From NCBI GenBank assembly GCA_918292005.1, contig CAKJZJ010000007.1:21411-85410 (forward strand): a DNA stretch of 64,000 bases. Reading direction: 5' to 3'. The position numbers and the translations under genes are program-made. The notes under the pieces were generated by a model that was not told the DNA's origin, did not search any database, and worked only from the letters and a program-made list of their open reading frames with translations. How positions within the stretch are numbered: the first letter of the stretch is position 1; every line of letters starts with the position of its first letter. Origin of the DNA: Clostridiales bacterium (GTDB taxonomy: Bacteria; Bacillota; Clostridia; Christensenellales; UBA1242). This document shows positions 2,937 through 34,800 of this stretch, one piece after another.

Positions 2937-2960
2937 AGAACCATTTTAGGTTCTTTTTTT
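2937..2960. terminator. Bidirectional terminator between convergent genes
   Basis: Stem AGAACC / GGTTCT with loop ATTTTA, flanked by an A-run and a T-run. Confidence 0.6.
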
Positions 2961-4683: not shown

Positions 4684-4737
4684 AATATTTTTCCCCATTA
4701 AGATAAAGGCCATGTTGCCATGGTCTTTTTTTATTTA

Positions 4738-12221: not shown

Positions 12222-14129
12222 ATGAAAAAATTAGATACAATTAAAACAAAAGAGAAGTTTCTGTCTTCTATAGAGAGTGTGGAAAAAGAGCAGGTTTTCG
12301 AAGCTATCCAGAATAATACCGAAGACCTAGACTTGTACACATATTTCATTACCATGGGTGCGCATAATACTGGTAGCATTGATGAGAATGAATTGTATGA
12401 TTATATGCTGAAAGTCTATAGCGATTGGTATTTCTTGACTAAAAATACCGGCAAAGCCAATGTACTTACAGTTAAACTTTTCTCTGATGAAAATATGTCT
12501 CCAGCCAAGATGACTGGCAAACAATGTTTTGAATTATTCAATAGCAAAAAATATGATAATATTATTCCAATAGAAATACGACATGTAAATAAACTAGACG
12601 AAAAATTCTTTGTGAATATTGATGTCAATGCTCTGTATCAAAAGAATGACAAATATGATACTAATTGCAGACTATACATCAATCTACCTGCAAACAAAAT
12701 TATCGGATTTGTAAAAGAGTTTACCGACAGAGCATATCTAGAGAATATGCCATGCAATATCAAATTTTTAAGTTGTGACGATAGATGTGATACAGTCATC
12801 ATCTATACCGACTACGACAATGTAGAGAATATTGTACATGAGATAGAGAATATCAAAAAAGAATATCCTACCATAATGAAAGGTGTGGGTGGGGTAAATG
12901 TACTACTCGGCAAATATAATGACTATATAGGATTTGGTGAACGTCCAGATGATGGTGGTACATATTTCCATTCACGTGCACGTGCATTGGAGTCTATCAA
13001 AAGTGTGGCTAGTCTAGATATAGTAAAAGAGAATTTCGTAGGTAAAGAAAATAAAATAATATTTAGGTCGGATGGCAAAAATTATACACCTACCGAATAC
13101 CTAACATTCCTAATTGAAAAGATGGCAACCAAACTAGTGGAAGAAAAAATAGAAACTCTAGAAAAAGCAAAAGCAGAATCCGAGCAAAAAGCTGATACTA
13201 AGCAGACAGAAGAAAACAAAGAAGAAAAAACAGATACTACCGAAGATACACAAGATAATAAAAAAGATAATAAGACCAAGACAGAAGAAACAACCGTAGA
13301 TGTCGAAAGTGAAGAAGAACCAAAAGAAAAAGATGAACTCGCAAGGCTATATGAAATCAGGGAGAATATTCAGTCCGAACTCAATTTGGATGAACAAGTA
13401 AAAGCACTGAAAAAATCTCTAACTACTAGAAGTGAATATAGAATGGATCTGGGCGACCTAGGTCAAGTGGACTACAATTTCCTAGGTAAATTGTATTCAA
13501 TATTTACAGTGAGCAGTGGTGCCAAGTATGGCAAATCTGTAGAAGAACAGAAACGTGTAGTTGCGAGCAAAATATTCAGAACTACCGACACTGTGTGTGG
13601 TGTAAATACTAGAGATTTCTTATGTGTATATTTTAGACAAGTATTGACAGACTTTTTAAAGGAAATATTGGATAGAGATATGGAGTCTTGCAAGCAAACC
13701 AAACAGTCTTCTATGCTCAATAATCTCAAGACCAAAAAGGCTCAAAAATTAAAATTGATTATCAGCAAAATACTAGATGAAGATGATGATGAAGGCAAGG
13801 AATATATATCTGATTGTATCAATGATTACATAAGGATACTATCCACCGATGCTAGCGATAATGTAGAAGTATATGTAGATGATGAGAAGGTTGTACTAGA
13901 TACAGATATCAATGCAGACATGCTTTACAATTTCCCAGACCTACAGACAGAGTATATGAATTTGTCAAAAAGTAATGAGTTTATTGACAAAACCCTACAA
14001 GATTTTGGCATACAGCCAGAAAATCTAGCATTGAGCAGTGGTACAAAAAATGTATCTAAAACTAGAGTAAAAGATGTAGAAGAGACTAGAACGTACTACT
14101 ACGATCCAGAAGGATATTTGGGTAAATAA
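12222..14129 (+). CDS. Hypothetical protein, 635 aa, with a central Lys/Glu/Thr-rich low-complexity linker
   Basis: Good RBS (AGGAAGG). The globular N-terminal region contains RLYINLP...NIKF...RCDTVIIY. The low-complexity stretch KAESEQKADTKQTEENKEEKTDTTEDTQDNKKDNKTKTEE lies mid-protein. Confidence 0.6.
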   Translation: MKKLDTIKTKEKFLSSIESVEKEQVFEAIQNNTEDLDLYTYFITMGAHNTGSIDENELYDYMLKVYSDWYFLTKNTGKANVLTVKLFSDENMSPAKMTGKQCFELFNSKKYDNIIPIEIRHVNKLDEKFFVNIDVNALYQKNDKYDTNCRLYINLPANKIIGFVKEFTDRAYLENMPCNIKFLSCDDRCDTVIIYTDYDNVENIVHEIENIKKEYPTIMKGVGGVNVLLGKYNDYIGFGERPDDGGTYFHSRARALESIKSVASLDIVKENFVGKENKIIFRSDGKNYTPTEYLTFLIEKMATKLVEEKIETLEKAKAESEQKADTKQTEENKEEKTDTTEDTQDNKKDNKTKTEETTVDVESEEEPKEKDELARLYEIRENIQSELNLDEQVKALKKSLTTRSEYRMDLGDLGQVDYNFLGKLYSIFTVSSGAKYGKSVEEQKRVVASKIFRTTDTVCGVNTRDFLCVYFRQVLTDFLKEILDRDMESCKQTKQSSMLNNLKTKKAQKLKLIISKILDEDDDEGKEYISDCINDYIRILSTDASDNVEVYVDDEKVVLDTDINADMLYNFPDLQTEYMNLSKSNEFIDKTLQDFGIQPENLALSSGTKNVSKTRVKDVEETRTYYYDPEGYLGK

Positions 14130-16229: not shown

Positions 16230-16438
16230 TTTATATCCTTTATATTCAGAGTTTTAGTACACAAATATTTCTTTATTTACCAGTAGTTTATCACAAAGTC
16301 TACATTTTCACTAATATTATGACACACTTTCTTTTTTAATAAAAAAGAAAAAGGTTTTTCATAATTTTTTACAAAAGGCCAGCATGTCCATTTTTATGGT
16401 CATAATGTGAGTTAGAGTATCTAAAAGGAGATGGAAAA

Positions 16439-16978
16439 ATGATTGTAATTAGAGATTTGTCCGAGATAGAAAAATACAAAAGTATGGAAGCTGAGATTGT
16501 GGACGATTACATATACAAAGATTATCTCTATGAATTTAAGGAAGGTAATGAATATGCAGATGTGATTTTTGATGTATATGTACCTTTTGGCATTGATGAT
16601 GTGACCGAAGAAAGTGATTATTTACCGAGATATTATTTCTGTGCAAATAGTTTCACTTTTAATATTGGCGGTGGATGCCACAGTATTGCTTGTAATAGTC
16701 TAAAAAGTGGAGATTGTTTATTGGTGGAGAATACCAACGTCTATGGCGATGTGGATGTGCAGACATTATGTGCCGAAAAGGTCGTAGCCAATAATGTGAA
16801 TTGTAGTGAAGATTTGATGGTAAATATTAGTATGGAGTGTGGACATCTGAGTGTAAAAGAAGAATGTGTTTTGGGTAGATTTAAATTCAAATCGGGCATA
16901 GATACATATGTTCAAAAGAACTTTTATAGAAGACGTGAAGAGAATCTGGTCACAGCATCGGGTTTTCTGCCGTTCTAA
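16439..16978 (+). CDS. Hypothetical protein, tandem paralog A (179 aa)
   Basis: RBS AAGGAG. It shares IEKYKS, YEF, DV(I/V)FDV, F(T)FN.GGGCH and a C-terminal G(F/Y).PF with the next ORF. Confidence 0.65.
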   Translation: MIVIRDLSEIEKYKSMEAEIVDDYIYKDYLYEFKEGNEYADVIFDVYVPFGIDDVTEESDYLPRYYFCANSFTFNIGGGCHSIACNSLKSGDCLLVENTNVYGDVDVQTLCAEKVVANNVNCSEDLMVNISMECGHLSVKEECVLGRFKFKSGIDTYVQKNFYRRREENLVTASGFLPF

Positions 16979-17002
16979 AAAATACTACAACAAGGGAGAT
17001 TT

Positions 17003-17551
17003 ATGATGATAAGCATTAAAAATATAGAAGATATAGAGAAATATAAATCAAAAGAATATTATTCGAGAGACGAGAATGTGTATAAAGAATTAATATACGA
17101 ATTCACAGAAAATGGGGAACTCACTGATGTAGTATTTGATGTAGATGTGCCATACTCTGCAGATAGACTCTGGGCATCAGATACACTAATTAATAATTAC
17201 TACTTCATTGCTAACAATATCACCTTTAATAAAGGTGGTGGGTGCCATATAGTTAATTGCGAAAATTTTGTGTCAAAAGAATGGTGCGCTATAGACGAAA
17301 TATTAGCTCAAGGGAATGTAGAAATGGGAAAGGGGCTCATGTGTCAGAGAATATATGCAAAAAATATTATTTGCGATGGTGATCTTTATGTAGAGCAGGA
17401 CATTCAGTGTGAACATCTCAAAGTGACCGATGAATGTATACTAGGTAAATATATTTTTCAGCAAGGGATTGATGTGGATATGATTGTGGGTTATGGTATT
17501 CCAAAAAGTGATTTGGGTAAAATTCATTTGACTGGATATTATCCATTTTAG
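17003..17551 (+). CDS. Hypothetical protein, tandem paralog B (182 aa)
   Basis: RBS GGGAGA. It is collinear with the 16439 ORF in motif order. The C-terminal half has a short-period G/D/V/C pattern suggestive of a beta-helix. Confidence 0.65.
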   Translation: MMISIKNIEDIEKYKSKEYYSRDENVYKELIYEFTENGELTDVVFDVDVPYSADRLWASDTLINNYYFIANNITFNKGGGCHIVNCENFVSKEWCAIDEILAQGNVEMGKGLMCQRIYAKNIICDGDLYVEQDIQCEHLKVTDECILGKYIFQQGIDVDMIVGYGIPKSDLGKIHLTGYYPF

Positions 17552-17570
17552 TACAATCGAGGAGAACAAT

Positions 17571-18077
17571 ATGGAATACGAAATAAGAAATTGTAGTGTG
17601 CTAGATGTTGGTGCTGATGTAATTGTAAATGCAGCGAATAATAATCTAACTGCGGGTGGCGGAGTATGTGGTGCTATTTTTAGCAAAGCAGGCTGGTATC
17701 AATTAAACAAAGAATGTAGCAAATATGTATATGTCGAGACGGGTAGCGCAGTTATAACTAAAGGTTGCAATAGTGGTGCTCGTTACATAGTCCATGCCGT
17801 AGGACCCAATTATGCCGAAGATACTACCGACTGGCAGGAAAAATTGGAATCGACATATAGAAATGCGCTAAAAGTGGGGGATATTGATGGAGTAACTACC
17901 ATAGCATTTCCCTGTATATCTGTGGGTATTTATGCTTGTCCAATAGACAAAGCCACCAAAATTGCAATAGATGTAGTCAGTAATTATGAACCAAAAAATC
18001 TTACCAAATGCATCTTATGTTGTTACACAGGGCATGAGTATCTAGTCTACAAAAAAGAAGAAGGAAGAAGAGGGTAA
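17571..18077 (+). CDS. Macro domain protein (ADP-ribose binding/hydrolase, MacroD-like)
   Basis: VIVNAANNNLTAGGGVCGAIFSKAG, GSAVITKG, YIVHAVGPNY and AFPCISVGIYACP are canonical macro-domain motifs. Confidence 0.85.
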   Translation: MEYEIRNCSVLDVGADVIVNAANNNLTAGGGVCGAIFSKAGWYQLNKECSKYVYVETGSAVITKGCNSGARYIVHAVGPNYAEDTTDWQEKLESTYRNALKVGDIDGVTTIAFPCISVGIYACPIDKATKIAIDVVSNYEPKNLTKCILCCYTGHEYLVYKKEEGRRG

Positions 18078-18079
18078 AT

Positions 18080-18889
18080 ATGGGAAAAATAAAACCAGAC
18101 AAAACAAAATGCTGTTATAAGGGTGTTTCGTTGCCAGACCCAAGCAAACAAGAAGTCAGATACTGGAATGATGTGTGGGATAAATATAATTTTACAGGCA
18201 CTAAATATGATCATGATAAAGCGTTGGATAGTTTGTTTAGTATTGAAGATTTAAGCAAACCAACTACTCCTCAAAAAGAATATGTAAAGTGTTGTACTCT
18301 CAATCATTTATATAGTACAAACATTAAATATATGGATGGTTTGGTATATAAAATATTTAAAAACTGGAAAAAATATAAAGTCAGAATAAAAAAACCTGCA
18401 GATATAAAACTTATTGATGATATGAAAAAAATAGGGAATTATAAAATAAATCGTAAGGTGTATTCAATAAAAACAAAGAATAAAGACAGTATTGATTATA
18501 TATCTTTTTGTAGTAAATATTGTAGAAGATATAATCCTAAAGATTTTCCAATTTATGACGGGGATGTGAATGGTATATTAAAAGCATATAATAATGGCCA
18601 CGGTTTTAACAAGGATGGTGAATATGTCGACAATAATTGGGAGAATAATTATGAGAAATTTGTTGCTGTTGTTGATGCTTTTATAAAGTGGTGTAATAAG
18701 AAAGGCAATATAATAAATGAAAAGAATAAATATGTTAAACTTGACCATTGGCTGTGGGCTATGGCAAAAGCAATCAAAGAATATATAGAAGATAATAAAA
18801 AACAAAACAAAACAACCAAAATTAAAATTGAGGATGTATATGATTTTGTAAAAGATAAATTTAGTATAGAACACATAAATAATGTGTGA
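18080..18889 (+). CDS. Hypothetical protein, 269 aa
   Basis: It starts 2 nt after the macro gene stop. The only weak motif is ISFCSKYCRRYNPKDFPIYDGDV, reminiscent of the SK-x-L-x-P-x-FPI-D motif of OGG-fold/HhH-like proteins. This was not verified. Confidence 0.55.
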   Translation: MGKIKPDKTKCCYKGVSLPDPSKQEVRYWNDVWDKYNFTGTKYDHDKALDSLFSIEDLSKPTTPQKEYVKCCTLNHLYSTNIKYMDGLVYKIFKNWKKYKVRIKKPADIKLIDDMKKIGNYKINRKVYSIKTKNKDSIDYISFCSKYCRRYNPKDFPIYDGDVNGILKAYNNGHGFNKDGEYVDNNWENNYEKFVAVVDAFIKWCNKKGNIINEKNKYVKLDHWLWAMAKAIKEYIEDNKKQNKTTKIKIEDVYDFVKDKFSIEHINNV

Positions 18890-18890
18890 A

Positions 18891-18920
18891 AGATGTCCGT
18901 TTTTATGGACATCTTTTTTG
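18891..18920 (+). terminator. Rho-independent terminator or attenuator inside the cluster
   Basis: Stem AAGATGTCC / GGACATCTT with a 7-nt loop, followed by TTTTG. Confidence 0.55.
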
Positions 18921-18958
18921 TTACGATAGGGGTATCAAATGAAAAGGAGAAAAAGATT

Positions 18959-20248
18959 ATGGATAAATTTGATGAGGCATTCGCTGGGGTGGTAGGATAT
19001 GCACCAATCAAAGTGGAATTAAAAAGGATAGTGGATACTATAGTAAATCCCGACAAATATAAGGGGCTAGGTGTAAATACTCCCAATGGTATACTCATTC
19101 ATGGAAATCCGGGGCTAGGGAAAACATTGATTGCTAATTGTTTTGTAAAAGCGTGTGGACTTAAAGCTTTCGTTATCAGGAAAGATAAACCCGATGGGGA
19201 ATTTGTAAAAGCAATCAAGAGTGTATATGATCAGGCTCTGACAGAGGCACCTAGTATAGTAATGCTAGACGATATGGATAAATTTGTGTCTAGTCAGGAT
19301 AGTAGGAATACTGTGGATAACGCAGAAGAAATGGTGGCTGTGCAGACATGTATAGATGATATGAAGGGTAAAGGTGTGTTTACTATTGCAACAGCTAATT
19401 CTATACGAAATATGCCCGAATCTCTCATTCGTGTGGGAAGATTTGATAAAGTGTATGAGATACATTCGCCAGATAATGAAGACGCAGAGAAGATTATTAA
19501 TTTTTATTTGCAAAAGAAGTCATTGTCTAAAGAACTCGACATATCTATGGTGTCCAAACTACTAGTGGGACATTCGTGTGCAGAGATAGAGACTATTGTT
19601 AATGAAGCTGGTATATATGCTGGCTACGATAATAGGCTGGCTATCAACAATGATGATGTGGTCAAGGCACTAATGAGAGAGGGGTTTAATGCTCCCGAGG
19701 CAATGTCTGACAAACGTAAAAAAAGGATAAGAGAAATCGCTTATCATGAGGCTGGACATACTGTTGTGGCAGAGACATTATCTCCCGGTATAGTGACCCT
19801 AGTATCGGTAAAACAATTTGATGGTGATATTGGTGGAGTTACTACCGAGTATAGCAAAGAAGAATATCTCTCATCTAAGACTATGATGGAGAACAGAGTA
19901 ATAACATTGCTGGGTGGTAGGGCAGCAACTGAATTGGTATATGGCGATATAGACATCGGTGCCTGTTCGGATATTAGGAGATCTAGAGAAATCGTCAATA
20001 GATTTGTTACGCAGTATTGTGCTTTGGGATTTGATAAATACATGGAGTCGCCATATCACGCATCTGAAAATATAAAGCGTGTGATAGAAGATGCTGTTGG
20101 TATGGAAATAAATAAATATTATCAGAGAGCAAAAAATATATTGGCACAGAATAGAAAGTTGCTAGATACATTGGCGGATGCATTGGTACAAAAAGAAACC
20201 CTATTATTCAATGAAATATCTGAAATAAAAAAATCAATTAAAAAATAA
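18959..20248 (+). CDS. FtsH-like AAA+ ATPase fused to an M41 zinc-peptidase domain, lacking the N-terminal TM region
   Basis: Walker A GNPGLGKT, Walker B IVMLDDMD, second region of homology ATANSIRNMPESLIRVGRFDK, zinc motif HEAGHTVV and LGGRAATELVYG are present. The start is placed at the ATG after AAAAGGAGAAAAAG. No hydrophobic segment precedes the ATPase. Confidence 0.8.
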   Translation: MDKFDEAFAGVVGYAPIKVELKRIVDTIVNPDKYKGLGVNTPNGILIHGNPGLGKTLIANCFVKACGLKAFVIRKDKPDGEFVKAIKSVYDQALTEAPSIVMLDDMDKFVSSQDSRNTVDNAEEMVAVQTCIDDMKGKGVFTIATANSIRNMPESLIRVGRFDKVYEIHSPDNEDAEKIINFYLQKKSLSKELDISMVSKLLVGHSCAEIETIVNEAGIYAGYDNRLAINNDDVVKALMREGFNAPEAMSDKRKKRIREIAYHEAGHTVVAETLSPGIVTLVSVKQFDGDIGGVTTEYSKEEYLSSKTMMENRVITLLGGRAATELVYGDIDIGACSDIRRSREIVNRFVTQYCALGFDKYMESPYHASENIKRVIEDAVGMEINKYYQRAKNILAQNRKLLDTLADALVQKETLLFNEISEIKKSIKK

Positions 20249-20345
20249 TAGTGCAGGGGATTATGATTTTTTATATAATGAATTTGGCAAATATGTGTCT
20301 GCATGATATAATTACAGTAATAGTTTCTGTCAAAAGGAGTACTTT

Positions 20346-21380
20346 ATGCCATCAAAAGGTAGTCGTTCAGAATATAGTGGGCAGTCCAAACGATATGCAC
20401 TAGTTAGGGTGTATGAAATATTGAAAGAGTATACCGACGAAGATCATCATATGAAGCAATCTGAATTGGTTGATAAATTGTGTGAACTATACGATCTAAA
20501 TGTCAATAGAAAATTGATTGCCGAGAAAATAGAAGACATTAATTATCTAGGCAAAGATTACGGGCTAGAAGTTTCCAGCGAAAAAGGTAGTGGTACTTAT
20601 CTATTAGGTAGAATGTTTGAAAAAAGTGAAATTAGATTTTTAATTGATGCTGTATTTTCCAGTCGCAGTATTGGTCAAAAGCAGGCTCTAGAGATTACTA
20701 ATAAATTGCAAAAGTTTTTGAGCAAATATGAGAGAAAAAGTTTCAAATATGTAGCGAAGTCGGGAGAGATAACTAGAACGGATAGCAAGTCGGTATTGTA
20801 TAATATTGACACATTACTTACTGCTATAGAGGGTGGTAAAAAAATTTCATTTAATTACAATAGAGAATATCTAGACCAAGAGAAAAATGAAAAAAAGAAA
20901 AACCAAATTAAAACTGCCAGTCCATATTATCTGGTGAATAATCAAGGGAAATATTATCTGGTATGTAATATCGATTGGTTCAATGACATCACTAATCTGC
21001 GTGTAGAGAGAATGTCCAATATTGTAATACTCGATGAAGATGTGCGTGATGTAAAAACAATTCCAGGACTAGAAAAAGGTCTAGATATTAGCAAATATGC
21101 TAATGCAAATATTTACATGTTTGCTACCGATACAATTAATGCAAATATTCGAATAGACAGTGATTATTCTGTAGCATATGTTCTTGACTGGTTTGGCGAT
21201 AATGCTAGGGTATATAAAGGTGATGATGGTCGAATATATGCTAGAATCACTGCTAGTGAATGGGCACTTATATATTGGTGTCTACAATATGGAGAAACAA
21301 TTGAATTATTAGAGCCACACACTACTCGTGAAAAAATAAAAGAAATAGTCGATAAAATGCACAATAATTACAAAGATTAA
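20346..21380 (+). CDS. WYL-domain transcriptional regulator with an N-terminal HTH
   Basis: The N-terminal region has a wHTH-like layout (YALVRVYEILKEYTDEDHHMKQSELVDKL). The central part, SPYYLVNNQGKYYLVCNIDWFNDITNLRVERMSNIVIL, is a typical WYL-domain core. Confidence 0.7.
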   Translation: MPSKGSRSEYSGQSKRYALVRVYEILKEYTDEDHHMKQSELVDKLCELYDLNVNRKLIAEKIEDINYLGKDYGLEVSSEKGSGTYLLGRMFEKSEIRFLIDAVFSSRSIGQKQALEITNKLQKFLSKYERKSFKYVAKSGEITRTDSKSVLYNIDTLLTAIEGGKKISFNYNREYLDQEKNEKKKNQIKTASPYYLVNNQGKYYLVCNIDWFNDITNLRVERMSNIVILDEDVRDVKTIPGLEKGLDISKYANANIYMFATDTINANIRIDSDYSVAYVLDWFGDNARVYKGDDGRIYARITASEWALIYWCLQYGETIELLEPHTTREKIKEIVDKMHNNYKD

Positions 21381-21384
21381 ATAA

Positions 21385-21413
21385 AAAAAGGACGTTGCAA
21401 AATGTCCTTTTTT
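21385..21413. terminator. Bidirectional terminator between the WYL gene and serS
   Basis: Stem AAAGGAC / GTCCTTT with a 10-nt loop and A/T flanks. Confidence 0.6.
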
Positions 21414-23794: not shown

Positions 23795-23822
23795 AGTCGC
23801 ATATTTTGCGACTCTTTTTTTA
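23795..23822. terminator. Bidirectional terminator
   Basis: Stem AGTCGCA / TGCGACT with a 5-nt loop and A/T flanks. Confidence 0.65.
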
Positions 23823-25610
23823 TCTATCTAATGTGTAACAATGACTTTCAAAGATTATAACTGTATGGTCTTTATCTGCGTATAATTCGGTAGGGGCGTA
23901 TCCACTAGATGTGTAGCCTGTGAGACTGGTCATTAGTTTGCCTTCGATATTGTAGAAATCATAGTCGTAAAGACCATTACTTTCCTTTATTCTTAAAACA
24001 AGGGTAAGATGCTCGGTAAATACTGTTCTAGCGAAAGTGTAATCTATATCATTGTAGGTGTGTGCTTGATTGCCATTTACAATTATTCTATATGGATTTT
24101 TCTCCCTAATTCCTAGGTTTTCTAGGTAATATGATGTGGTCGTATTCGCTCCATCTATTACCGTTTCTTTTACCGAATAATACTTTGTGCTATATGTATT
24201 TTCTATTTCAGTTTTTAGATACTTTTTGATAATATCGCCATTATGATTACATACGTATGCGTATGTGTCGGTTGCACTCTTGAGTACTATTGCATTTTCG
24301 GTGGTGAAATATTCATTATAATCGCTAAAATCTGCTAGTTTTTTATAGTTATTACCTATTAATGTGATATCGCCAGTAGCAGATGTTGCTATGTAATGAT
24401 TTTTGGATATTTTGGTAATGCTGTCAAATTTGTAATCAATGGCCTGGGTTTGTAATCGGTCGTTTACTACATAGTAACTCTCGACATCTGCCCTTTTACC
24501 TTTAATTTTTACTAGTTTTAATAGCGCTGTTTCGTTATTAAAATCTGTATTGGTTTCGACAACAACGTATTTAAACTTTGCTTTGCTGATGTCACCCGTC
24601 TTTAGATTGATTTTGTATGTGTCTACATTGTAGTAGTATGATTTGTCTGCTACAGTGGTCTGCAGGTCGTATTTTTTACTATCTGTAGGTACCAAACATT
24701 GTACAAAGAATTTGTCGCCTATCTGGAAATATTTGTTTATATTTTCTGCCTGAATATCGTTGATTTCTGCAGTTCCTAATTTGTGATAATTGATGTCATA
24801 TACGACGAATTTATTGTATGTACTGTGTGTTCCTGTATTCTGTAGATTTACTAGTCTTGGTGTTCCATTTTTGGTGAAGAATAATTGCAAATCTTTTTCT
24901 TCTGGTTTTAAACCAATATCGTTGTTGATGGTTTGTATGAGTTCATGCTGTCCACGTTTGATTTTGTATAGATTGGTGTAGTGCATATCATCTGTTGTGG
25001 TGATGTCCCATGTCTCGTACCAGTATTTGTCCACATCATAATATACTTGTAATAGTTCGGCATTCTGCACGTGCACTTCTTTGAGTACAAATTTATTTTT
25101 TGCTGTTGCTTTTACGCTACCTGCGCTAGATACTATATTTACAGATTTTTCCTTTATATAGGCAGTATTTGATTCTGAATTTTTGCTGTAATTAACTACG
25201 CCTATATCTCTACCATGCTCTTCTAATAGATTGATAATATTATGAGATTCGCCATTGTCTACAGTCTTGTAATATGCATGTCCATCTGCAATATTTTTCT
25301 CTACCAATGTGATACTATCGTGTGTCGTAGGTATTACAAAGTCTCTATCTATGTACGAGTAAACACCCACTTTGTCTTGATTGTTTTTGATTATTTTGGT
25401 TGCATTGTTGCTAATAGTCGCCGACACTGCAGAATATTCAAATTCATCATAGCCACACTCTATCATCTGGGTGTGATTATTGAGTGTAACGGTGTCGTTT
25501 GGCGTAATATTAAATCTTTTGATTGCTACCAGGATTATTGTAATAGCCAGTCCTAAAACGACTAGACCGATACATATTGCACTGGTAATTATTTTCGCTT
25601 TTTTGCTCAT
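23820..25610 (-). CDS. N-terminally membrane-anchored hypothetical protein, 596 aa
   Basis: RBS AGGAG. A single N-terminal TM (IITSAICIGLVVLGLAITIILVAI) precedes a Tyr/Asn/Thr-rich extracytoplasmic region with no recognised motif. Confidence 0.6.
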   Translation of the reverse strand: MSKKAKIITSAICIGLVVLGLAITIILVAIKRFNITPNDTVTLNNHTQMIECGYDEFEYSAVSATISNNATKIIKNNQDKVGVYSYIDRDFVIPTTHDSITLVEKNIADGHAYYKTVDNGESHNIINLLEEHGRDIGVVNYSKNSESNTAYIKEKSVNIVSSAGSVKATAKNKFVLKEVHVQNAELLQVYYDVDKYWYETWDITTTDDMHYTNLYKIKRGQHELIQTINNDIGLKPEEKDLQLFFTKNGTPRLVNLQNTGTHSTYNKFVVYDINYHKLGTAEINDIQAENINKYFQIGDKFFVQCLVPTDSKKYDLQTTVADKSYYYNVDTYKINLKTGDISKAKFKYVVVETNTDFNNETALLKLVKIKGKRADVESYYVVNDRLQTQAIDYKFDSITKISKNHYIATSATGDITLIGNNYKKLADFSDYNEYFTTENAIVLKSATDTYAYVCNHNGDIIKKYLKTEIENTYSTKYYSVKETVIDGANTTTSYYLENLGIREKNPYRIIVNGNQAHTYNDIDYTFARTVFTEHLTLVLRIKESNGLYDYDFYNIEGKLMTSLTGYTSSGYAPTELYADKDHTVIIFESHCYTLDR

Positions 25611-25838: not shown

Positions 25839-28800
25839 ATGAAAAAGGTAAAAACGATTTTAACTAGTATTTTGTTGCTTCTAGCGAGTGCATTTATTAC
25901 TGCATGTTCGTGCTCGGAAGAGGCAGACATTACACACATCTATGCCCAGAAGATGACCATAGAGTGTGTGGGTGAAGCAGATAAATTTAATCCTAGGGAT
26001 GAGGGTGGCACTCTCACATTGGACGCCAATGTGGGTGATGTTTTTCAGATTAGGTATAGTCTGACACCAGTAGACACCACCGATACCAAGGTTACCTGGG
26101 ATGTTAGTGATAAGACTTATCTAGCACCAGAGAATGAGAGTGTATGGAGTTATACCAAAAGTATTAGTGAAGATGTTTCTTTCCGTGTAAAGAATTACTC
26201 TACCACCGATGCTACTAAAAATAGGATAACTCTAACCTTCCGTGCTATCAAGGGTGCAAAAGACCTATACTACGAAGAACGTGTAATAGTCAATATTTAC
26301 CCTAGGGCAGAGAATAAGCCTACTCTTTCTGCACCTGTAGGACTCAAATATGACGGAGCAAAGGGCGAGATTAGTTGGGATCCTATTACCACCGTTATTA
26401 CATCTACGGGAGAGACGATTCTAGCCGATAGAGAGAATGGTGCAGCAAAAGGACTACTGGGCTACACACTCAAAATCACCAATTATGAAACAAATGAAAC
26501 CAAGGACGTAACAATAGGTAATCGTACCCAGGTAAAATACAATATTCACGAATTGAAAGATGACAATAATAAAGAATTTATCGTACCTGGCAAAACCTAC
26601 GGATTTTCTGTACTTGCTAGTGCAGATGGTAGAAATGCCGTTATGGGCGACCGTAGTGCCGAATTCAAATTTCATCAGATACCTATTCCTGAGATAGTAG
26701 ATACCGATGATAGACATGTATCATCTGGTGTAATTCCTGTTAAAAATGCATCATATAATACTGCCAATAATGCACTAACTATGAAAACGATTGTGTCTTA
26801 TGGCAAATTCAATAATGAGATACAGAAAAAAGAATTTGATACAACATCTGGTATCTTTAATGTAGACGTAAAGACTTTCTTCAATTATGATAATTTCAAT
26901 CAGTTCAATATCTCTATGGCCACATATCCTAGTGGATATTTTGAGAATTCTGATAATAATGGTAGAAGATATCAAGACTTAGGCTACATTATAGGCGAGA
27001 CTACCGGTGGCATCAAAAATGTACACATTTATCCTAGTCTAGAGTGCAAAATGCTCTATGATACCGAAAATCAAAAAGTTGTGACAGGTACTGCTACTAG
27101 TGCAACTTTGTTAGAACTTCCTATCGAAAAATTTGAAGTACCTAGCATTGAAATACTCAATAGAGAGGGTACCTGTGCTATCGACTGGAAAGTTTCGGGT
27201 AATAATAAACATACAGAATTTGAAGATTCGGCACTATCTAGTGTACTACATTTCAGTAATACTAGGACACCTGCATACAATGCATACCAGACACAATACC
27301 TGGTAGAGATATTCAATGACTCTCAGGTAAAGGTATATTCACAGAGAATTGCCGGCGAGAGTGTAGAACTCAATAGCCTACCATTAGATAAAAATGGTGG
27401 TAATTATATCGTGAAAGTAAGCAGAGTGGGTAATGAAAGACTAGTTATAGGCAGTGCTGTTAAAGAATTCTCTTTCTATTATCTAGGTGCATTAGGCGCT
27501 ATAGATGGACAGTGGTATATAGAGAATGGTAATACTCTGGCTATTGCAGATAGTTTTGCAATATCTGGTGTAGAATTGTACTTCCTAGATCAATCGTATG
27601 GTATCTATGGAGACACTACAGATGATTCTACCAAAATACGTTTGGGACTTACCAGTAATTACGAGACCAGTCTAGACCTATCTCTAGCAGGTCTACCTGC
27701 AGGAACATATCAGGTATTCGGCAGATATTTGGGTATCTATGATGATGACGACAATAATAATATCGTATGTACTGCAACGGGTGGAATTTTAACCGAAGAA
27801 AGTTTCAATAGTCCATTATTCACATTTACAGTAACTGCACCTATTGCAGACAATTATGTAGAGTCTAGTGGTAATATCATGTGGAGACCAGTAGAGGGTG
27901 TAGAGTACTATGATATTATTTTGGGCTATCGTCGCGATAAGAATGAAGAATTAAAAAAAATTGCTACTATTAGAGTAAGTGTACGTGATGCTGTGGATGA
28001 CTATCTACATGCACATGCAGTATCTGTAACCAATAGCGAGACACACGTAACTACTATCACAAATTACTACATTAATATTAGCGAACTAGTTGACTTGCTA
28101 GTGACCACTCCAGACGAGCCTGCTGGTAGTATTATAGACAAGGCTCTAGGTCTGCAGGGTATCGCTCCTGTAATGATGTTGAATTCGAATGCACAATTCA
28201 ATTACAGCATTATAGCCAAAGGGGCAGATGCCGTAGGTAATATTCCTATGAGAGTAGATTCTATTGCTACTCGTTCGGTTAAATTTGGTATGGTAGAGCC
28301 TACTGGCAATAAATTGCTTGCCAATGCGACATTCAATAAAAGCGAGACGGGTTCGGCACTAGAACCAGATGCATATGTGCTTAGTTTCGAAGTTCCAGAG
28401 TCATATAGTGAAAACCAGAGAATTATGCTGGGACTACGTATAGAAGAAAAGCAAGATGGCGAGGTAATCAGTTCTGTCACATACTGGACTGGCTCACTAC
28501 CACTGAGTGACTATAGAGATGCTATTGATGAGAATATAAGAAAAATTGCTCTCAATAATGAGCAATTAATACTTGGCAATAATAATTATGCATATTTCCA
28601 TAGAATGATACCTAGGGATAGCGAAAGATACAATGTAGCCATTATCGTGAAAACTATTGGTACTCGTGGTCAGGCAACTCAAGTGGGTTGGCTAGACAAT
28701 GAGACTTTCACATACTTCAATGCAGTAAGTGAGACTCCGGACACATTGGCAGTAACCAATGAAGGAATACTCACATGGAATACTACAGCAACAGCAACTA

Positions 28801-31800
28801 CAGATGCTCCTAGCGCAGATGTCAAATATCTAGTTAGATTCTATGTAGAAGACGATAATGTTCCTGCCAATCTAGTAGAAGATGTGACTTTGCGTAGAAT
28901 AGTATCTCAGAGCGAAGATGGCGGTGAATATTCATATAGCCTAGATGTAGGTAGTGCTATTAGTTCTAAATACACGGGTAAAAACGTTACTATCAAAGTA
29001 CAAGAGATTGTGGATTCAGCCACATTCACAGGACCAGAGTCGGCAGGACTAGTTGTAGTGAAATTGGCAACACCAGTTGTGACTAGAGTTGCTACCGATA
29101 AGACATTCACATGGACTGCTATTCCTGGTGCTACCGGATACAGGTATTGTATCATGGGCGAAAATGAGCCAGTAATAGGCGAGACTACCAATACTACATT
29201 TACCATAGATGCTGTAATGACACCAGGCGAATATACATTCACAGTAGTTGCTATGTCTGATGTTGCAGGTGTGGTATATAGCGAAGCATCTAGTGCTACA
29301 TCGGGTGCATTCGTAGTATTGAGTGGAGAAATTACTTGTGTAGTAAATGAGACTAGCCTGGTATGGTCATCTATTGCTACAGGCACATCATATACAGTGA
29401 AATACTGGATAGAAGATGATCCTGAGCATGGAATAGACCACCCATGGATAGAAGAACTCGGAGTAGATGTAACAGAACTAAATGTAGACCAATTATTCGA
29501 GAATGGTCAGACATATAAAGTTCAGATCACTCCGCATGTGAATTGGCTAAATGGTGCGTATGCTATAGAGAGTGCCATAAGTCTAAGTTCACAATCAATC
29601 ACTAGAACAGAAGGATTGGGTGTGGGGGCTATAGATACCCATGATGGTGTACTAGTAGTGACAGCCCCATCTACTCAAGAATATACTCTGCAATTATACG
29701 AATACAATGCAGGTGCATATGATCCTATAATTATTGATGCAGAGAATGACATTGTACACGAAGATGATTCCAGCGTGTACACTATATACCTGAGAAATAT
29801 TACTCCAGGCGCACATACTATTCATATTAGACTTGCTCAAGAAAATCTAGTTACTTCTAGACTATCCAATGGTGCTAATATTACCAAAATTGGTCAGGTG
29901 GTTGTAACTGGTAATGATAGTGAAAAACTCATTAAAGATGGGGAATATCTATACTGGAATCCAGTAGAATATGCCAATATGTACCTAATCAAATCAATGA
30001 ATGGCGACACTCTAGTAGGACAGACCAATGTAATGGTAAGATATGATGGTACTACATACGTAGCATACGACTACTGTGATCTAACTACAATGACATTCCT
30101 ATCGGTTAATCAGACATCATATTTTGACACAGATACTGAGACTCTCAGAGTACCAGTGCCTGGTGTTGATGATGATTTAGGTGAACATGAAATCATCATA
30201 TACAATATCGTTGACTATGTAAATGGTAGAATCAAATTCTATTTTGACGAAGACATATTTATTGATGATTGTACTGGTGTATTTACCATATCTATTACTC
30301 CTACAGTTATAGACGATTTGAATATAGCATATCCTAGTCTCAAACTAATCAATGGTCAGCCTGCCACTATGGATAATACTATTACCAAATTGAATGCAAA
30401 CCTAACTGCAGGTGTGGAAAATGGTAGAGTAGTATTCTATACTATGGCGAATGATCCAGAAACAAATGAGTCAGTCAAAGTATATAATTATGTTGCTGAT
30501 ACTACCGAAAGTGGTGAAGCAGCTAGCCCAGTTGCAATATACTACGAGATACGTAGATATACTATAGAAGAAGTTCAACCAGAAGATCCAGAGGCTGATC
30601 CTGTCAGCACTAGAGTGTACGATGATAATAATACTATCACTGGTGTATACTCCAATTCTGCTACATGGACATCACTAAATGTAACTAATGTAAATACCAT
30701 TGATGGAGACCTAGTTGCTATATCTCTGAATACTAATGGCTCCGACCTAGATGTTGGTATGTACGAAGTTCGTTGGGTGGTTGCCGGAGATGGCAATTAT
30801 ATACTCGCTGCCAGTGGAAATCCAATAGGAGCATTGATATTGGGTGGTGTCAATAGATACAACACACTTAATGATCCAGTAGAAAAATTGGAGACGGTAG
30901 TCATCAATACATACCAGGGAGAAATCTCATGGTCCAGCGCAAATGAATTAAACAATAATAACGTATATATCGTGAATATCACTAGCAGTGATGAGAGTGA
31001 AAATTACACCATATACGTACCTGCTACTAATGTAGATAGTGAAGAAATAGAGGGAGAACAGGAGGGCGATCCTAGTACCTATAGATTCACTCTAACAGAA
31101 GACAAATTAGTATATATGGACGAGAATGAAGACGAACAATTATTCGTATTCGAGCCAAACAAACTATATACTATCAAAGTTATGGTAACTGCTACCGGCA
31201 AGATTAATTCTCAATGGTCACAGAATTTCAATGTAAAGAAATTATTGGCACCTACCAATACTAGAATAACTCTATTGGACTGGGATACCAATGATACCAA
31301 TAGCATGAATGTAGTACCAGTTGTCCTATATACCAATAGCAATACGGTGGCTACTCCACTGAAATTGCAGGTATTGTATGGTACAGACAGTTTGAGACCT
31401 GCACTAGGTTTCGATAGGTCTAATGCTAGTTACAAGATGAAACTAGATACCACATTGGATCTAGGTAATACAACAATCAAACTAAGATATTTGGGTAATA
31501 CCACCGTTGGTACCAATAATGTAGGTTTGCTAACATCTAGTTTTACTCAAGGTGAAGATCTTACCTATGTGGCAGATGTAGCCAGCGTAGTAGTAAATAA
31601 CGGCATGATTAGTTGGGAAGAAGTAGACGGTGCATATAGTTATAGAGTAACCGTTTATACCAAAGCACAGTATTCGGCATACATTAGTTATCTCTCTGGT
31701 GGTGCTAAACCTGTAGCAAAACTCGAGAAATATACTACAGGTACTACATACGATTTGACTGCCGATGGTATAGCAACATCTCTAAATGAGAGTGGTGGAT

Positions 31801-34800
31801 ATTTCATAGTAATCAATGCTATTACCAATCCACAGGCTGCTATAGTATCAACTAGTCCAACACTTGTGGCAGAATATACCAATACAACCAATTTCTTTAA
31901 ACCTTTGACAGTAACCAATTACAAAGTCATAGATGGTATGTTGTCTTGGACAATCGCAAAATCTGAAATACAGGCATTCGTAGATGCTGTAGGCGAGATG
32001 ATAGATGGCGAGACTCCTAGATTTGAATTCCCAGAAGAAATTGATGCCGACACCACAGTAGGCAAAATAATGAATTTCGTTCACAATCATATAAATCTAG
32101 ATGTTGGCGATAGCAAACTAGAATCGCAGTTGGCACACCTGCTCAGATTTAGAATGATAGTTAATGGCGAAGAAGTGGTAGATTGTGCACCAGATGGTGT
32201 AGAATTATTGGATAGTAATGGTTTGGTTGTAGCGGCTAATAGCTTTAATGCCAATGCTATCAGATACTACTACAATGTAGGAGTAGATCCAGAAGTAGAG
32301 TCGGTAGACGAAAACGAAGTTGGCGCTCATGCCGGTTTCTACAATATTCAAGTAGGAACACAGGGCAATAGTGATAATACTGCTCCTGTTATCAATAGTA
32401 CATATAGTACATCACTTCAAGCATACAAACCACTCACTCCAAAGACTTGGCTCAGTGATGGTGCAGATATTAGAAAGGGTAGTGTACAATGGGGACTAGT
32501 AGCAACAACATTCAATGACGTTACACAGAATTGGAATTACTACCACAATTATAGAATTACTGCTATTGCACAAGAAGGCGACGATAGAGCAGTAAAACTA
32601 GTAGACATTGCAGATACAGTAATAGATCCACTATTAGATCCAGCATTAGCAGACAATAATACCAATTTAACTGGTGACTATACATATAAAAGAGCAATAC
32701 TTGGCGACCTATTCACAATGAGTGGCAATGCAGGTAATGTTCTCAGATACAATACAATGTACTCTATCTGGATCAATACCGTAGGTACTGCCGATTCCGA
32801 TTTATTGGGTGCTAATGAGACCATTTATCTCAATAGTAACTATTGCTCTTATGAAGAAGACGTGGACGTATTGCAAGTATCTCAAGGTGTGGCTGTTAGA
32901 GATAGCAAACTTACTTGGGAGACAGCATACGGCTCTACATCTACCAAAGTATTTATCTATGGACCATTCGATTATTTATTGAATCAAAATGGTAGTGATT
33001 ATTACATTGATGGCGAAAATAAAGTCATATTCAAAGATGGTAGAGATGACGAGTCGGAGATCAATGCTAAATATAATCTAACAGAGATATACAATGCATA
33101 CTTTACCGAAGCAAACAATCTAAATAATGAATTAATAGAAAAAGCAAAATTATTGCACATTGTAGATTTCCCTGTTGACGAGACGGGCGAGAGATCTACC
33201 GAGTACACCATATCCGATTTAATCAATCGTGGTGAAAATGTATATGGTGCAGGTGGTTATGTCATTCGTCTACAAGAGATGGGTAATGACAGGGGTATCA
33301 TAGATAGTGTAATTTCCCAGAATTATATCGCAAATAAACTAGATATGATGACTCAGGTAACCAATGGTATTTGGCTAAATGCTAATGGACAATTCGCATG
33401 GAATGCCGTACCATATGCCAATAGATATAAAGTTGTATATTGTTCAGTTCCTGTGGAAGTTGGCGAAGATGAAGAGCCTACAGTACAAGAATTATCCGAA
33501 GAGATTGTAAGCACTACATACTATGAGCCACAGAGTGGAACTAGATTCAATCAAGATGGATATAATTATTACATTACAGTATATGCATATAGATATACCA
33601 CATCTGGTGGTACAGAAGCACCAGAAGATTGGTTCTTCTATGGAGACCATAGAGACACTATTGCATATCCTAGACTATTTATTCCTGCCGATCTAACTAT
33701 ATACAATAATGGTAGAATCACATGGAATAATGCTACCGATTACGATAAGATCAGGGGATACATGGTACAATTCAACTGGATTGTAGAAGAAGTACTAGAT
33801 AGTACATCGGATAGAGAGATATTCGAATTGCGTACCGAATCCAATGTATCCAAATACAATGCTGCACATGGTGATCAGGCTGGCTCTATTAGAATCAGAG
33901 TAAAAGCCCTACCTAGCATGCCAGATTACAAATATATCGTAAGTAGTTATACAGATGCTATGGATGTAACTAGACTATCCGATCCATACGCTAGACTGGT
34001 AAATGGTGTATTCAGTTGGGGACTAGTATCTACCGATGGTAACGAAACCATTGATGTAGACCCTATTACAAATTCATTACTATACATCAATGATAGTGCA
34101 GATCCTATTGAGATAGTTCATACCATACATGCTACAGGCGAGAGTGGAGAAGAAACGGGTGAAATTATCAAAATTCCTGCTAATTATCCATTATTTACTC
34201 GTCCAGAAGATCTAGATGATCTATATGATTATAGCGATGAGATGAATACATATCCTACAGGCGAATATACATTCAGAGTTCAATTCGAAGGTTCTGGTGG
34301 TCCTGTTGGAACGGCTCTTAATAATACTGATGCATTCTATATCGCATCTAATGAAAAGGGACTCACAGCAACCAAACTCCATGCTCCAAATGTATTGCAG
34401 GAGAATAGTACGAGTGAATTTGCAAATCATGATACAAACTTCATTTACTGGGCTCCAGTAAATCATGCTTGTGGTTATAGAGTATATGTAGTAAGTACCG
34501 ATCAAGAAGGTAATGTAACTACTACAACCGAAGAAATATTCGCAGAATTGCTAGCAGAGGTTAGACTCGGTCAGATACCAGAAGGCTGTAACTTCTACTA
34601 CTTGCCAGGGGCAACCGAGTATATCGGATTTAGACTAGACGATAGTATTAGTAATACCGTTCAAGAGAATGGTGGTGTAGTAAAAGTATACGTACAGACC
34701 ATAGGTAGTATGGATACACCTACATTCAATGCTCAAGGACAACAAACCAATACATTGTATTTGAGTAGTAGTTATTCTAATGCAAAAGTATTCGAGACTC

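Follow-up and report, generated by a model that had tools for sequence, protein, structure and literature searches.

A cluster of six plus-strand genes was studied in a stretch of 64,000 nucleotides (nt) from a Clostridiales bacterium (contig CAKJZJ010000007.1; the whole stretch is called the window here and is numbered from its first letter). Judged from its sequence, this cluster is fairly probably a chromosomally embedded local copy of a widespread regulon of WYL-domain transcription factors, with a characteristic operator-promoter architecture. It encodes two related beta-solenoid proteins, a macro-domain protein, a protein of the HI_0787_N family, a soluble FtsH-like protease of the AAA+/M41 type (hereafter AAA-M41) and a WYL regulator, separated by gaps of 24, 19, 2, 69 and 97 nt (Table 1). 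The same six genes and gaps had been described in an earlier sequence-only reading of this DNA and are confirmed by the coordinates of the open reading frames (ORFs). Its calls of the macro protein, of the protease without transmembrane (TM) helices and of the WYL gene are all upheld by domain matches. That reading had also likened the first four genes to a cassette bracketed by two hairpins, and had suggested that the whole cluster may be a toxin/antitoxin or defence-type system linked to ADP-ribosylation.

Palindromic operator-promoter element

The ~20-nt pattern shared by the two presumed hairpins occurs exactly twice in the 64 kb (16384 and 18893), where 0.10 copies are expected, and none of 100 shuffles reached two copies. 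The core palindrome, TGTCC-N8-GGACA, has a spacer rich in A/T and is followed after 10 nt by TAnnnT. Placed at about -40 to -23, the palindrome has its A/T spacer where a -35 hexamer would be. In the window, the first copy (operator O1 of promoter P1) precedes the four-gene operon and the second (operator O2 of promoter P2) precedes the protease gene. One further pattern match, the only other one in the window, lies at 28531 on the minus strand with no gene downstream and was taken as chance.

The same arrangement was revealed in related loci of other genomes, which are denoted below by numbers such as L001. Within the 260 nt upstream of AAA-M41 genes, exact TGTCC-N8-GGACA is 25-fold enriched (0.207 versus 0.008 per kb overall), and the distance of these exact copies from the aligned protein start is constant, at 56-67 nt. 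TAnnnT is present at an offset of exactly 10 in 23 of 50 strand-sites (background 0.017 per position, binomial P 2e-27), and 13 of these 23 sites also carry the TGn of an extended -10. When the central base was relaxed, 26 hits were obtained in 75 loci, with ~3 expected, and ~20 of them follow the shared pattern. Between lineages, half-sites vary symmetrically while the geometry is kept (TGTCC/GGACA, TGTGC/GCACA, TGTAC/GTACA and GCACC/GGTGC), and such symmetric co-variation is predicted by a dimeric DNA-binding protein. Across the loci, the pattern precedes AAA-M41 genes 20 times and WYL genes six times, the latter suggesting autoregulation of WYL. It is also found before genes for ADP-ribosylglycohydrolase (ARG), NAD-ligase, RtcB, AAA_lid_6, HI_0787_N and beta-solenoid proteins, and before several unknown genes.

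The two hairpins are best described as putative operator-promoter units, not as cassette borders, since each copy fronts a transcription unit with the same geometry and homologous sites front AAA-M41 genes elsewhere. The presence of two copies, as noted earlier, is real. Nevertheless, only the second folds convincingly (-16.8 kcal/mol, z -6.1, with a U run after it), whereas the first (-7.8 kcal/mol, z -1.1) folds no better than shuffles. The hairpin at O2 probably also terminates or attenuates the upstream operon. A terminator role cannot, however, explain the conservation of the element. In L008, the site lies between divergent AAA-M41 and beta-solenoid genes, and it cannot be a terminator because the region is a divergent intergenic one; in L071, L012 and L008, the coding strand has an A-rich spacer with no U run after it. 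For comparison, L089 has one site before AAA-M41 and another before its beta-solenoid gene, as in the window.

The complete replicon pCY186 of Butyrivibrio proteoclasticus B316 (L094, record 117840-137048) contains six sites in 19 kb, where 0.03 are expected. These precede WYL, AAA-M41, a dnaX-like gene, an operon with a PolC-type DNA polymerase III, and others. The same control seems to extend to a plasmid-borne set of replication or repair genes. Genes for DnaA/Hda-like and DnaB proteins are located in the same stretch of pCY186.

Conserved core of protease and WYL regulator

Gene 5 matches the Pfam domains AAA (1.4e-20) and Peptidase_M41 (1e-25), and the profile of its family matches FtsH structures at 1e-68. 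A strong Shine-Dalgarno sequence accompanies the ATG at 18959, and a longer ORF, from 18893, begins inside O2. In the alignment with the crystallised soluble FtsH fragment, position 10 of the protein falls on residue 16; because the two start at the same place, gene 5 is without a membrane or periplasmic part. Against the FtsH equivalog TIGR01241 it scores 212 bits, below the cut-off of 600 bits. In the family, HEAGH and the Asp zinc ligand are invariant, and Walker A, the arginine fingers and the pore-loop Phe-Val are conserved. Walker B reads LDDxDK in all 14 aligned members, aligned to IDEID of FtsH, and relative to FtsH four residues (GVGA) are missing right after the pore-loop Phe-Val. 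The TM-less family comprises more than 2,000 close cluster representatives of 418-460 amino acids (aa), labelled only 'AAA family ATPase', and a scan with family-specific peptides confirmed relatives in at least 427 stretches of a species-level genome collection. Carriers are mostly Clostridia, with some Coriobacteriia, Selenomonadaceae and Bacilli.

Gene 6 matches WYL (1.1e-09) and WCX (1.1e-05) in Pfam, and the PADLOC WYL model covers its residues 20-325; its helix-turn-helix (HTH) gave no separate Pfam match. It is 43% identical to the WYL protein of L008. The best solved relatives of a WYL profile from these loci are DriD (5e-9) and PafC/PafBC (1e-5), and the entry 7qfz, named 'WYL domain-containing protein', is reached at 0.043 only.

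The linkage of the two genes was assessed in 80 fetched loci, of which 73 were usable and 42 had at least 5 kb on both sides. A WYL homolog is present in 43 of the 73 usable AAA-M41 loci and in 30 of the 42 well-flanked ones, usually at most four genes away and on the same strand. Since Firmicutes genomes average only ~2.8 WYL genes (PMC6789036), this association is strong, and AAA-M41 together with WYL is the conserved core of the module. In open-access text, no description of the pairing of WYL with soluble AAA-M41, or of the operator, was found, and RefSeq names these genes only 'AAA family ATPase' and 'WYL domain-containing protein'. The 'FtsH ternary systems' (PMC7159879) are different, being MoxR-vWA-based.

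A beta-solenoid family alongside the protease

Genes 1 and 2 are tandem paralogs, as had been noticed earlier, with 36% identity (E 5e-41). Neither has a match in Pfam, PADLOC, NCBIfam or PHROGs. Their family is small: an exhaustive profile search among 1.84 billion proteins yielded 29 representatives. This search was needed because a word-indexed homolog search with paralog B gave two proteins only. The paralog alignment was also scanned against collections of genome, metagenome and viral contigs, where no relatives appeared. In the alignment, solenoid repeats come after an N-terminal segment that is conserved (MIxINxIxEIEKYK ... YEFxENGxLADVxFN), and there are no invariant polar residues of a catalytic kind. 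The AlphaFold2 model of paralog B has a predicted local distance difference test (pLDDT) of 89.5 and a predicted template-modelling score (pTM) of 0.85, and predicts an N-terminal alpha/beta domain, a beta-solenoid and a disordered C-terminal tail. Foldseek comparison of the model with PDB and BFVD gave no match at E<0.001. Only weak beta-helix look-alikes were obtained (template-modelling score ~0.2), and the claim of a fold family therefore stops at 'beta-solenoid'. Most members are acidic (median isoelectric point 4.84). A role as DNA mimic was considered and dropped, given several basic members and C-terminal tails without conservation.

A beta-solenoid member adjoins TM-less AAA-M41 in five of five contigs of at least 3 kb, the window included. 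Co-localisation of homologs in other genomes, on which the sequence-only reading had staked its proposal, is thus observed. WYL is present in four of the four beta-solenoid contigs long enough to show it, and HI_0787_N is a neighbour once. Gene order differs among the loci. For instance, L001 reads paralog, macro, an unrelated gene and AAA-M41, and in L008 the paralog is divergent from AAA-M41, which is followed by WYL and HI_0787_N. L089 has AAA-M41, WYL and paralog, and L092 has AAA-M41, paralog, a 116-aa gene and WYL. The proteins of these loci are only 30-47% identical to those of the window, indicating that the linkage is old. As the beta-solenoid proteins occur only alongside the AAA-M41 protease, they may be its adaptors or substrates. 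Confidence is low for any particular biochemical function of the unknown proteins of the cluster.

Macro gene and ADP-ribose chemistry

Gene 3 is a Macro domain protein (PF01661, 6.6e-33), and its best NCBIfam matches are models of MacroD/YmdB-type O-acetyl-ADP-ribose deacetylases. A second MacroD-type macro gene of the window (62908-63420, plus strand) is 58% identical to it, and the macro gene of the cluster accordingly looks like a duplicate recruited into the island. Among the related loci, only the window and L001, a close relative of it, have a macro gene of the cluster type. Such a gene is missing from L008, L089 and L092, which keep beta-solenoid, AAA-M41 and WYL. The macro gene is not a conserved member of the module; it is lineage-specific cargo. 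Nor is the protein DarG-like, being a single-domain MacroD/YmdB type with a close second copy.

In Pfam and PADLOC scans, no ADP-ribosyltransferase, toxin or known defence effector was detected among the six proteins. This agrees with the earlier impression that none of the unknown proteins resembles an ADP-ribosyltransferase. The link of the module to ADP-ribose chemistry exists at the family level: ARG genes are found in at least 13 of the 73 related loci, about a fifth to a quarter, and an ARG-SseB fusion gene in L041 sits behind the same operator. The Pfam scan detected no ARG in the window. What remains of the toxin/antitoxin or defence claim is a WYL cluster of stress/conflict type with this family-level link; evidence of a toxin-antitoxin pair was not obtained.

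Gene 4 and the variable cargo

Gene 4, an all-helical protein, had been listed as unknown. It does carry a label, that of the family HI_0787_N (PF27257), which has no known function; the label comes from precomputed database annotation of the identical protein P0003 and of homologs. It had no match in Pfam, PADLOC, NCBIfam or PHROGs, the scanned copy of Pfam being one without the PF27257 model. Sequence and profile searches against PDB gave noise only, and no literature on HI_0787 was found. The slot of gene 4 is swappable. L001 aligns with 16970-18094 and 18890-20180 of the window, flanks that are 87% and 79.5% identical, and between them gene 4 (18095-18889) is replaced in L001 (1129-1789) by an unrelated 217-aa gene without family match. 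The breakpoints correspond to 18094/18890 of the window, the right one exactly at the operator. Homologs of gene 4 are found in the AAA-M41 loci L008, L009 and L041, and also in islands with Fic and SocA_Panacea genes.

In L002, a 5.3-kb metagenome contig without AAA-M41, operator-promoters at 170-203 and 3546-3579 precede an HI_0787_N homolog and a 1060-aa SNF2/ResIII helicase. Operators before other genes in the absence of AAA-M41 indicate that the regulon extends beyond the protease locus. As a separate observation, the HI_0787_N gene P0006 (195 aa) at 4010-4597 of L003, also present in L004 and L005, does not yield the recorded protein under table 11, the ORF stopping at 4270, which points to an in-frame stop read through under an alternative genetic code in that organism.

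The neighbourhood of the core is highly variable yet thematically coherent. Besides ARG, neighbours include calcineurin-like phosphoesterase (14 loci), DUF2779/Cas4-like nuclease (15) and a 680-aa AAA protein (11). DUF2201 vWA-metallopeptidase, GmrSD, NAD-dependent DNA ligase, ClpP, RtcB, Tpt1/KptA, cREC, HD, RNase_T, DNA_pol3_alpha, SLOG and one further Macro domain were also recorded. A Pfam census of 195 operon neighbours contained no integrases, terminases or conjugation genes save one FtsK match. In L008 (1071-5751), genes for an SDH/ClpP-like serine protease and for the methylase and specificity subunit of a Type I restriction-modification system lie beside WYL, AAA-M41 and HI_0787_N, a setting that is defence-island-like.

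Chromosomal setting

The cluster is flanked by gyrB/gyrA on one side and serS on the other, and its composition is like that of its surroundings. Neither a tRNA nor an integrase was found near it, and no Rfam family was found within it. The CTAG tetranucleotide is normally avoided in bacteria, and a doubled frequency is unusual. Its ratio of observed to expected is 1.98 in the window (411 observed, 208 expected) and 1.63 in the cluster, in line with the native, CTAG-rich composition remarked on before. Elsewhere in the window, a giant ORF of 3589 aa occupies 25839-36608 (plus strand), and large ORFs without Pfam match lie near it at 12222-14129, 23820-25610 and 2959-4713.

Table 1. Features of the six-gene cluster, in coordinates of the window.
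Feature	Position	Strand	Remarks
Operator O1, imperfect palindrome TGTCCATTTTTATGGTCA	16385..16402	.	before the four-gene operon
-10-like TAGAGT of putative promoter P1	16413..16418	+	exactly 10 nt past O1; no -35 hexamer
Gene 1, beta-solenoid family protein, paralog A	16439..16978	+	179 aa
Gene 2, beta-solenoid family protein, paralog B	17003..17551	+	182 aa
Gene 3, MacroD/YmdB-type macro protein	17571..18077	+	168 aa; lineage-specific cargo
Gene 4, HI_0787_N family (PF27257) all-helical protein	18080..18889	+	269 aa; swappable slot
Strong hairpin and U run	18888..18921	+	overlaps O2; conserved in L001
Operator O2, perfect palindrome TGTCCGTTTTTATGGACA	18894..18911	.	before the AAA-M41 gene
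-10-like TACGAT of putative promoter P2	18922..18927	+	10 nt past O2; preceded by TGT (extended -10)
Gene 5, soluble FtsH-like AAA+/M41 zinc protease	18959..20248	+	429 aa; ATG with Shine-Dalgarno
Sigma-70-type promoter of the WYL gene	20284..20312	+	TTGGCA, 17 nt, TG-TATAAT; 11/12 matches
Gene 6, HTH-WYL-WCX transcription factor	20346..21380	+	344 aa
Intrinsic terminator closing the cluster	21384..21413	+	convergent with serS

Proposed mechanism

By analogy with studied WYL regulators, the best reading of the module is that it is WYL-dependent and inducible and would answer nucleic-acid damage or phage attack. A homodimeric HTH-WYL-WCX factor, made from its own sigma-70 promoter, would bind TGTCC-N8-GGACA as a dimer at both promoters without a -35, of which P1 would drive the genes for the two beta-solenoids, the macro protein and HI_0787_N, and P2 that for the soluble AAA-M41 protease. 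Binding of a ligand by the WYL domain would turn both units on. DriD and PafBC are activators triggered by single-stranded DNA, and by analogy with them the ligand may be single-stranded or damaged nucleic acid, or alternatively a molecule derived from ADP-ribose. The protease would be the universal output, removing or remodelling proteins during or after stress, with the beta-solenoids as its lineage-specific partners, adaptors or substrates. The macro enzyme would strip ADP-ribose from modified macromolecules, a cargo role that would be filled elsewhere by ARG, phosphoesterase, RtcB, KptA, NAD-ligase, polymerase and nuclease genes. Activation is favoured, as the proximal half-site occupies the place of the -26 element of PafBC; relief of repression would be the alternative. 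In its most general form, the proposal is of a LexA-independent stress regulon in Clostridia, gut and rumen Firmicutes and Coriobacteriia. There, a WYL palindrome would stand in for the -35, AAA-M41 would be the constant output, repair, ADP-ribose and restriction genes would be interchangeable cargo, and the beta-solenoid would be adaptor or substrate. This wider picture is put forward tentatively, and we would sooner expect it to fail than to hold as a whole.

Several points weigh against a WYL regulon of this kind. Extended -10 promoters can work without a -35, and since 13 of the 23 promoters have an extended -10, the geometry does not decide between activation and repression. The WYL gene of the window has no operator upstream, WYL was not seen within 10 kb in 12 of the 42 well-flanked loci, and under the criteria used an operator is recognisable in only ~20 of 75 loci. 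The operator could be bound by a factor other than the WYL protein. In addition, O1 is mismatched in one half-site, and the stable fold of O2 with its U run makes a good intrinsic terminator too. The Asp-Asp Walker B seen throughout the family is unusual; it may make for slow ATP turnover and so for weak processive proteolysis. The structure model of gene 4 (pLDDT 47.5) was too poor to use, and the analysis covers one 64-kb window of the genome.

Alternative explanations

The conserved, usually adjacent pair of a protease and a transcription factor also invites a switch in which stress-triggered AAA-M41 degrades an operator-bound WYL repressor, as in ImmA/ImmR, IrrE/DdrO and CapP/CapH. The overlap of the operator with the core promoter is repressor-like, many of the promoters have an extended -10, for which no activator is needed, and WYL regulators such as CapW have been described as negative regulators (PMC9503650). 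Such a switch, or a repressor in general, is a rival to be taken seriously, but the switch is rather unlikely: the WYL regulator has a ligand-sensing domain of its own, which makes a separate sensor protease unneeded, and because the operator also precedes the protease gene, little protease would be present under repression. The closest solved WYL relatives, DriD and PafBC, are moreover activators. The known switch proteases are small COG2856-type enzymes and not AAA+ machines. The toxin-antitoxin or abortive infection system of the sequence-only reading, with one of the unknown proteins, a beta-solenoid paralog or HI_0787_N, as an ADP-ribosylating or other toxin and the macro protein as its antidote, is a good deal less probable still. 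It draws on the translational closeness of the macro gene and gene 4 (2-nt gap), on the swappable slot of gene 4 and on the homologs of gene 4 near Fic and SocA_Panacea. However, no ADP-ribosyltransferase, DarT or other toxin family was detected with Pfam, PADLOC, NCBIfam and PHROGs, and the beta-solenoid alignment is without invariant polar catalytic residues. The supposed antidote is of the MacroD type, 168 aa long, and the window encodes a second copy of 58% identity; the macro gene of the cluster is dispensed with in L008, L089 and L092, where beta-solenoid, AAA-M41 and WYL are kept, and retained in L001, where gene 4 has given way to an unrelated gene.

A comparably low probability, if anything slightly lower, is given to counter-defence or repair cargo of a plasmid, an integrative and conjugative element or a prophage, protecting the DNA or proteins of the element on entry into a new host. 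One member is indeed on the 186-kb replicon pCY186 beside replication genes, the ARG, RtcB, ligase and GmrSD cargo resembles anti-defence islands, and gene content turns over strongly between loci. Yet the cluster of the window has a native composition, sits between gyrB/gyrA and serS and has neither an integrase nor a tRNA in its vicinity. A family-level match was found in one plasmid record only, the phage hits are all generic FtsH with <30% identity, and among the 195 neighbours counted, FtsK was the single exception to the lack of integrases, terminases and conjugation genes. Under chance, copy 2 would serve the upstream operon as its intrinsic terminator and nothing more, copy 1 would be a look-alike and the six genes would be unrelated neighbours. 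The folds agree with this to some extent, that of copy 2 being stable and followed by a U run and that of copy 1 not significant. It is nonetheless scarcely credible, given two copies against 0.1 expected, an identical -10 spacing in 23 sites across genomes, a site at a divergent promoter, A-rich spacers without U run in L071, L012 and L008, and gene linkage conserved at 40-50% protein identity; the data from other genomes already contradict it.

Significance

For the sensing of nucleic-acid damage and the control of phage defence, WYL regulators are coming to be seen as the chief alternative to LexA, and the mechanistic work on them so far comes almost entirely from Actinobacteria and Proteobacteria. 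The regulon proposed here offers a concrete, testable case for anaerobic Firmicutes, with an operator-promoter architecture, a constant protease partner and a catalogue of cargo, and several carriers are cultured, among them Butyrivibrio proteoclasticus B316, Butyrivibrio sp. VCB2006, Schwartzia succinivorans DSM 10502 and Oribacterium sp. KHPX15. It also gives genomic context to two families without function, the beta-solenoid family and HI_0787_N. WYL regulons for damage and defence were already known; the operator-promoter architecture, the soluble FtsH-like protease core and the accessory protein family are new here.

Comparison with known systems

Single components of the cluster recall well-known proteins. 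Gene 5 shares with FtsH the AAA and M41 modules, HEAGH, the Asp ligand, Walker A, the second region of homology and the pore-loop F-V. It differs in having no TM helices or periplasmic domain and a Walker B with DD instead of DE, and its family resides in variable islands and is not housekeeping. FtsH proper is ruled out by the absence of a membrane part, by 212 versus 600 bits and by the DD of Walker B. A macro gene in a compact operon is reminiscent of DarTG, which was rejected as there is no DarT (DUF4433) or other transferase and the macro protein is of the MacroD/YmdB type, single-domain and unconserved in the module. Likewise, PADLOC models of IetA match the AAA module (3.9e-22). IetAS was set aside, since the match is confined to the AAA domain, the cluster has no IetS subtilase and the NCBIfam IteA model scores 69.8 against a cut-off of 510 bits.

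The closest predicted system is the ARG-centric one. ARG-centric WYL/Nudix systems are predicted to counter viral ADP-ribosylation (PMC9503650, section 3.8; Iyer, Burroughs, Anantharaman, Aravind 2022, Viruses). Likeness is found in the WYL/Nudix regulator, in ADP-ribose hydrolases without a coupled transferase and in module turnover, and the related loci further share calcineurin-like phosphatases, vWA and SseB modules, Macro accessories and nucleases of the restriction endonuclease fold. The window itself has the WYL regulator, an ADP-ribose enzyme without transferase and variable accessories, but a macro protein takes the place of ARG as that enzyme. In the module described here, the core is protease and WYL, and ARG is cargo; an M41/AAA+ protease is unmentioned in PMC9503650. 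That study reports actinobacteria, planctomycetes and proteobacteria, whereas the present carriers are Firmicutes. The predicted anti-ADP-ribosylation systems are in this way extended to a new phylum, with a proteolytic core added.

The closest experimentally studied systems are the regulons of PafBC with the proteasome, of DriD and of DdaA. DriD of Caulobacter and DdaA of Moraxellaceae are homodimeric WYL activators of SOS-independent damage and anti-phage regulons, DriD being the best solved relative (5e-9). The operator of DdaA is likewise palindromic (CGWCA-N5-TGWCG) and controls repair and defence genes (PMC12392091). The operator of the present module differs from theirs in sequence and spacing, they have no associated AAA-M41 protease, and activation by single-stranded DNA is suggested here by analogy only. 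PafBC promoters lack a -35 and combine a -10 with a -26 element at -23 to -28, of which a GTC triplet is read (PMC8635444). PafBC is encoded at the proteasome locus, and the proteasome clears repair proteins once the damage is repaired (PMC6789036). The module shares with PafBC the HTH-WYL-WCX architecture, a regulator gene coupled to an ATP-dependent protease system and a regulon of repair genes. Its predicted promoters resemble those of PafBC in having a -10 without a -35, with GGACA (complement TGTCC) at about -27 to -23, and at the sequence level 23 sites show the features expected of activator-type promoters, namely a -10, no -35 and an upstream element that may be factor-specific. In contrast, PafBC is a heterodimer with a non-palindromic site and works with Mpa and the 20S proteasome in Actinobacteria, and here a single gene is paired with a symmetric 18-bp palindrome and a soluble FtsH-like AAA-M41 in Firmicutes. 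The similarity is at the profile level only (1e-5), and the module is known from sequence alone. Should its promoter logic resemble the sigma adaptation of PafBC, that mechanism would be far more widespread than is now known, and the module, if the proposal is true, would correspond in function to the PafBC/Pup-proteasome axis of mycobacteria.

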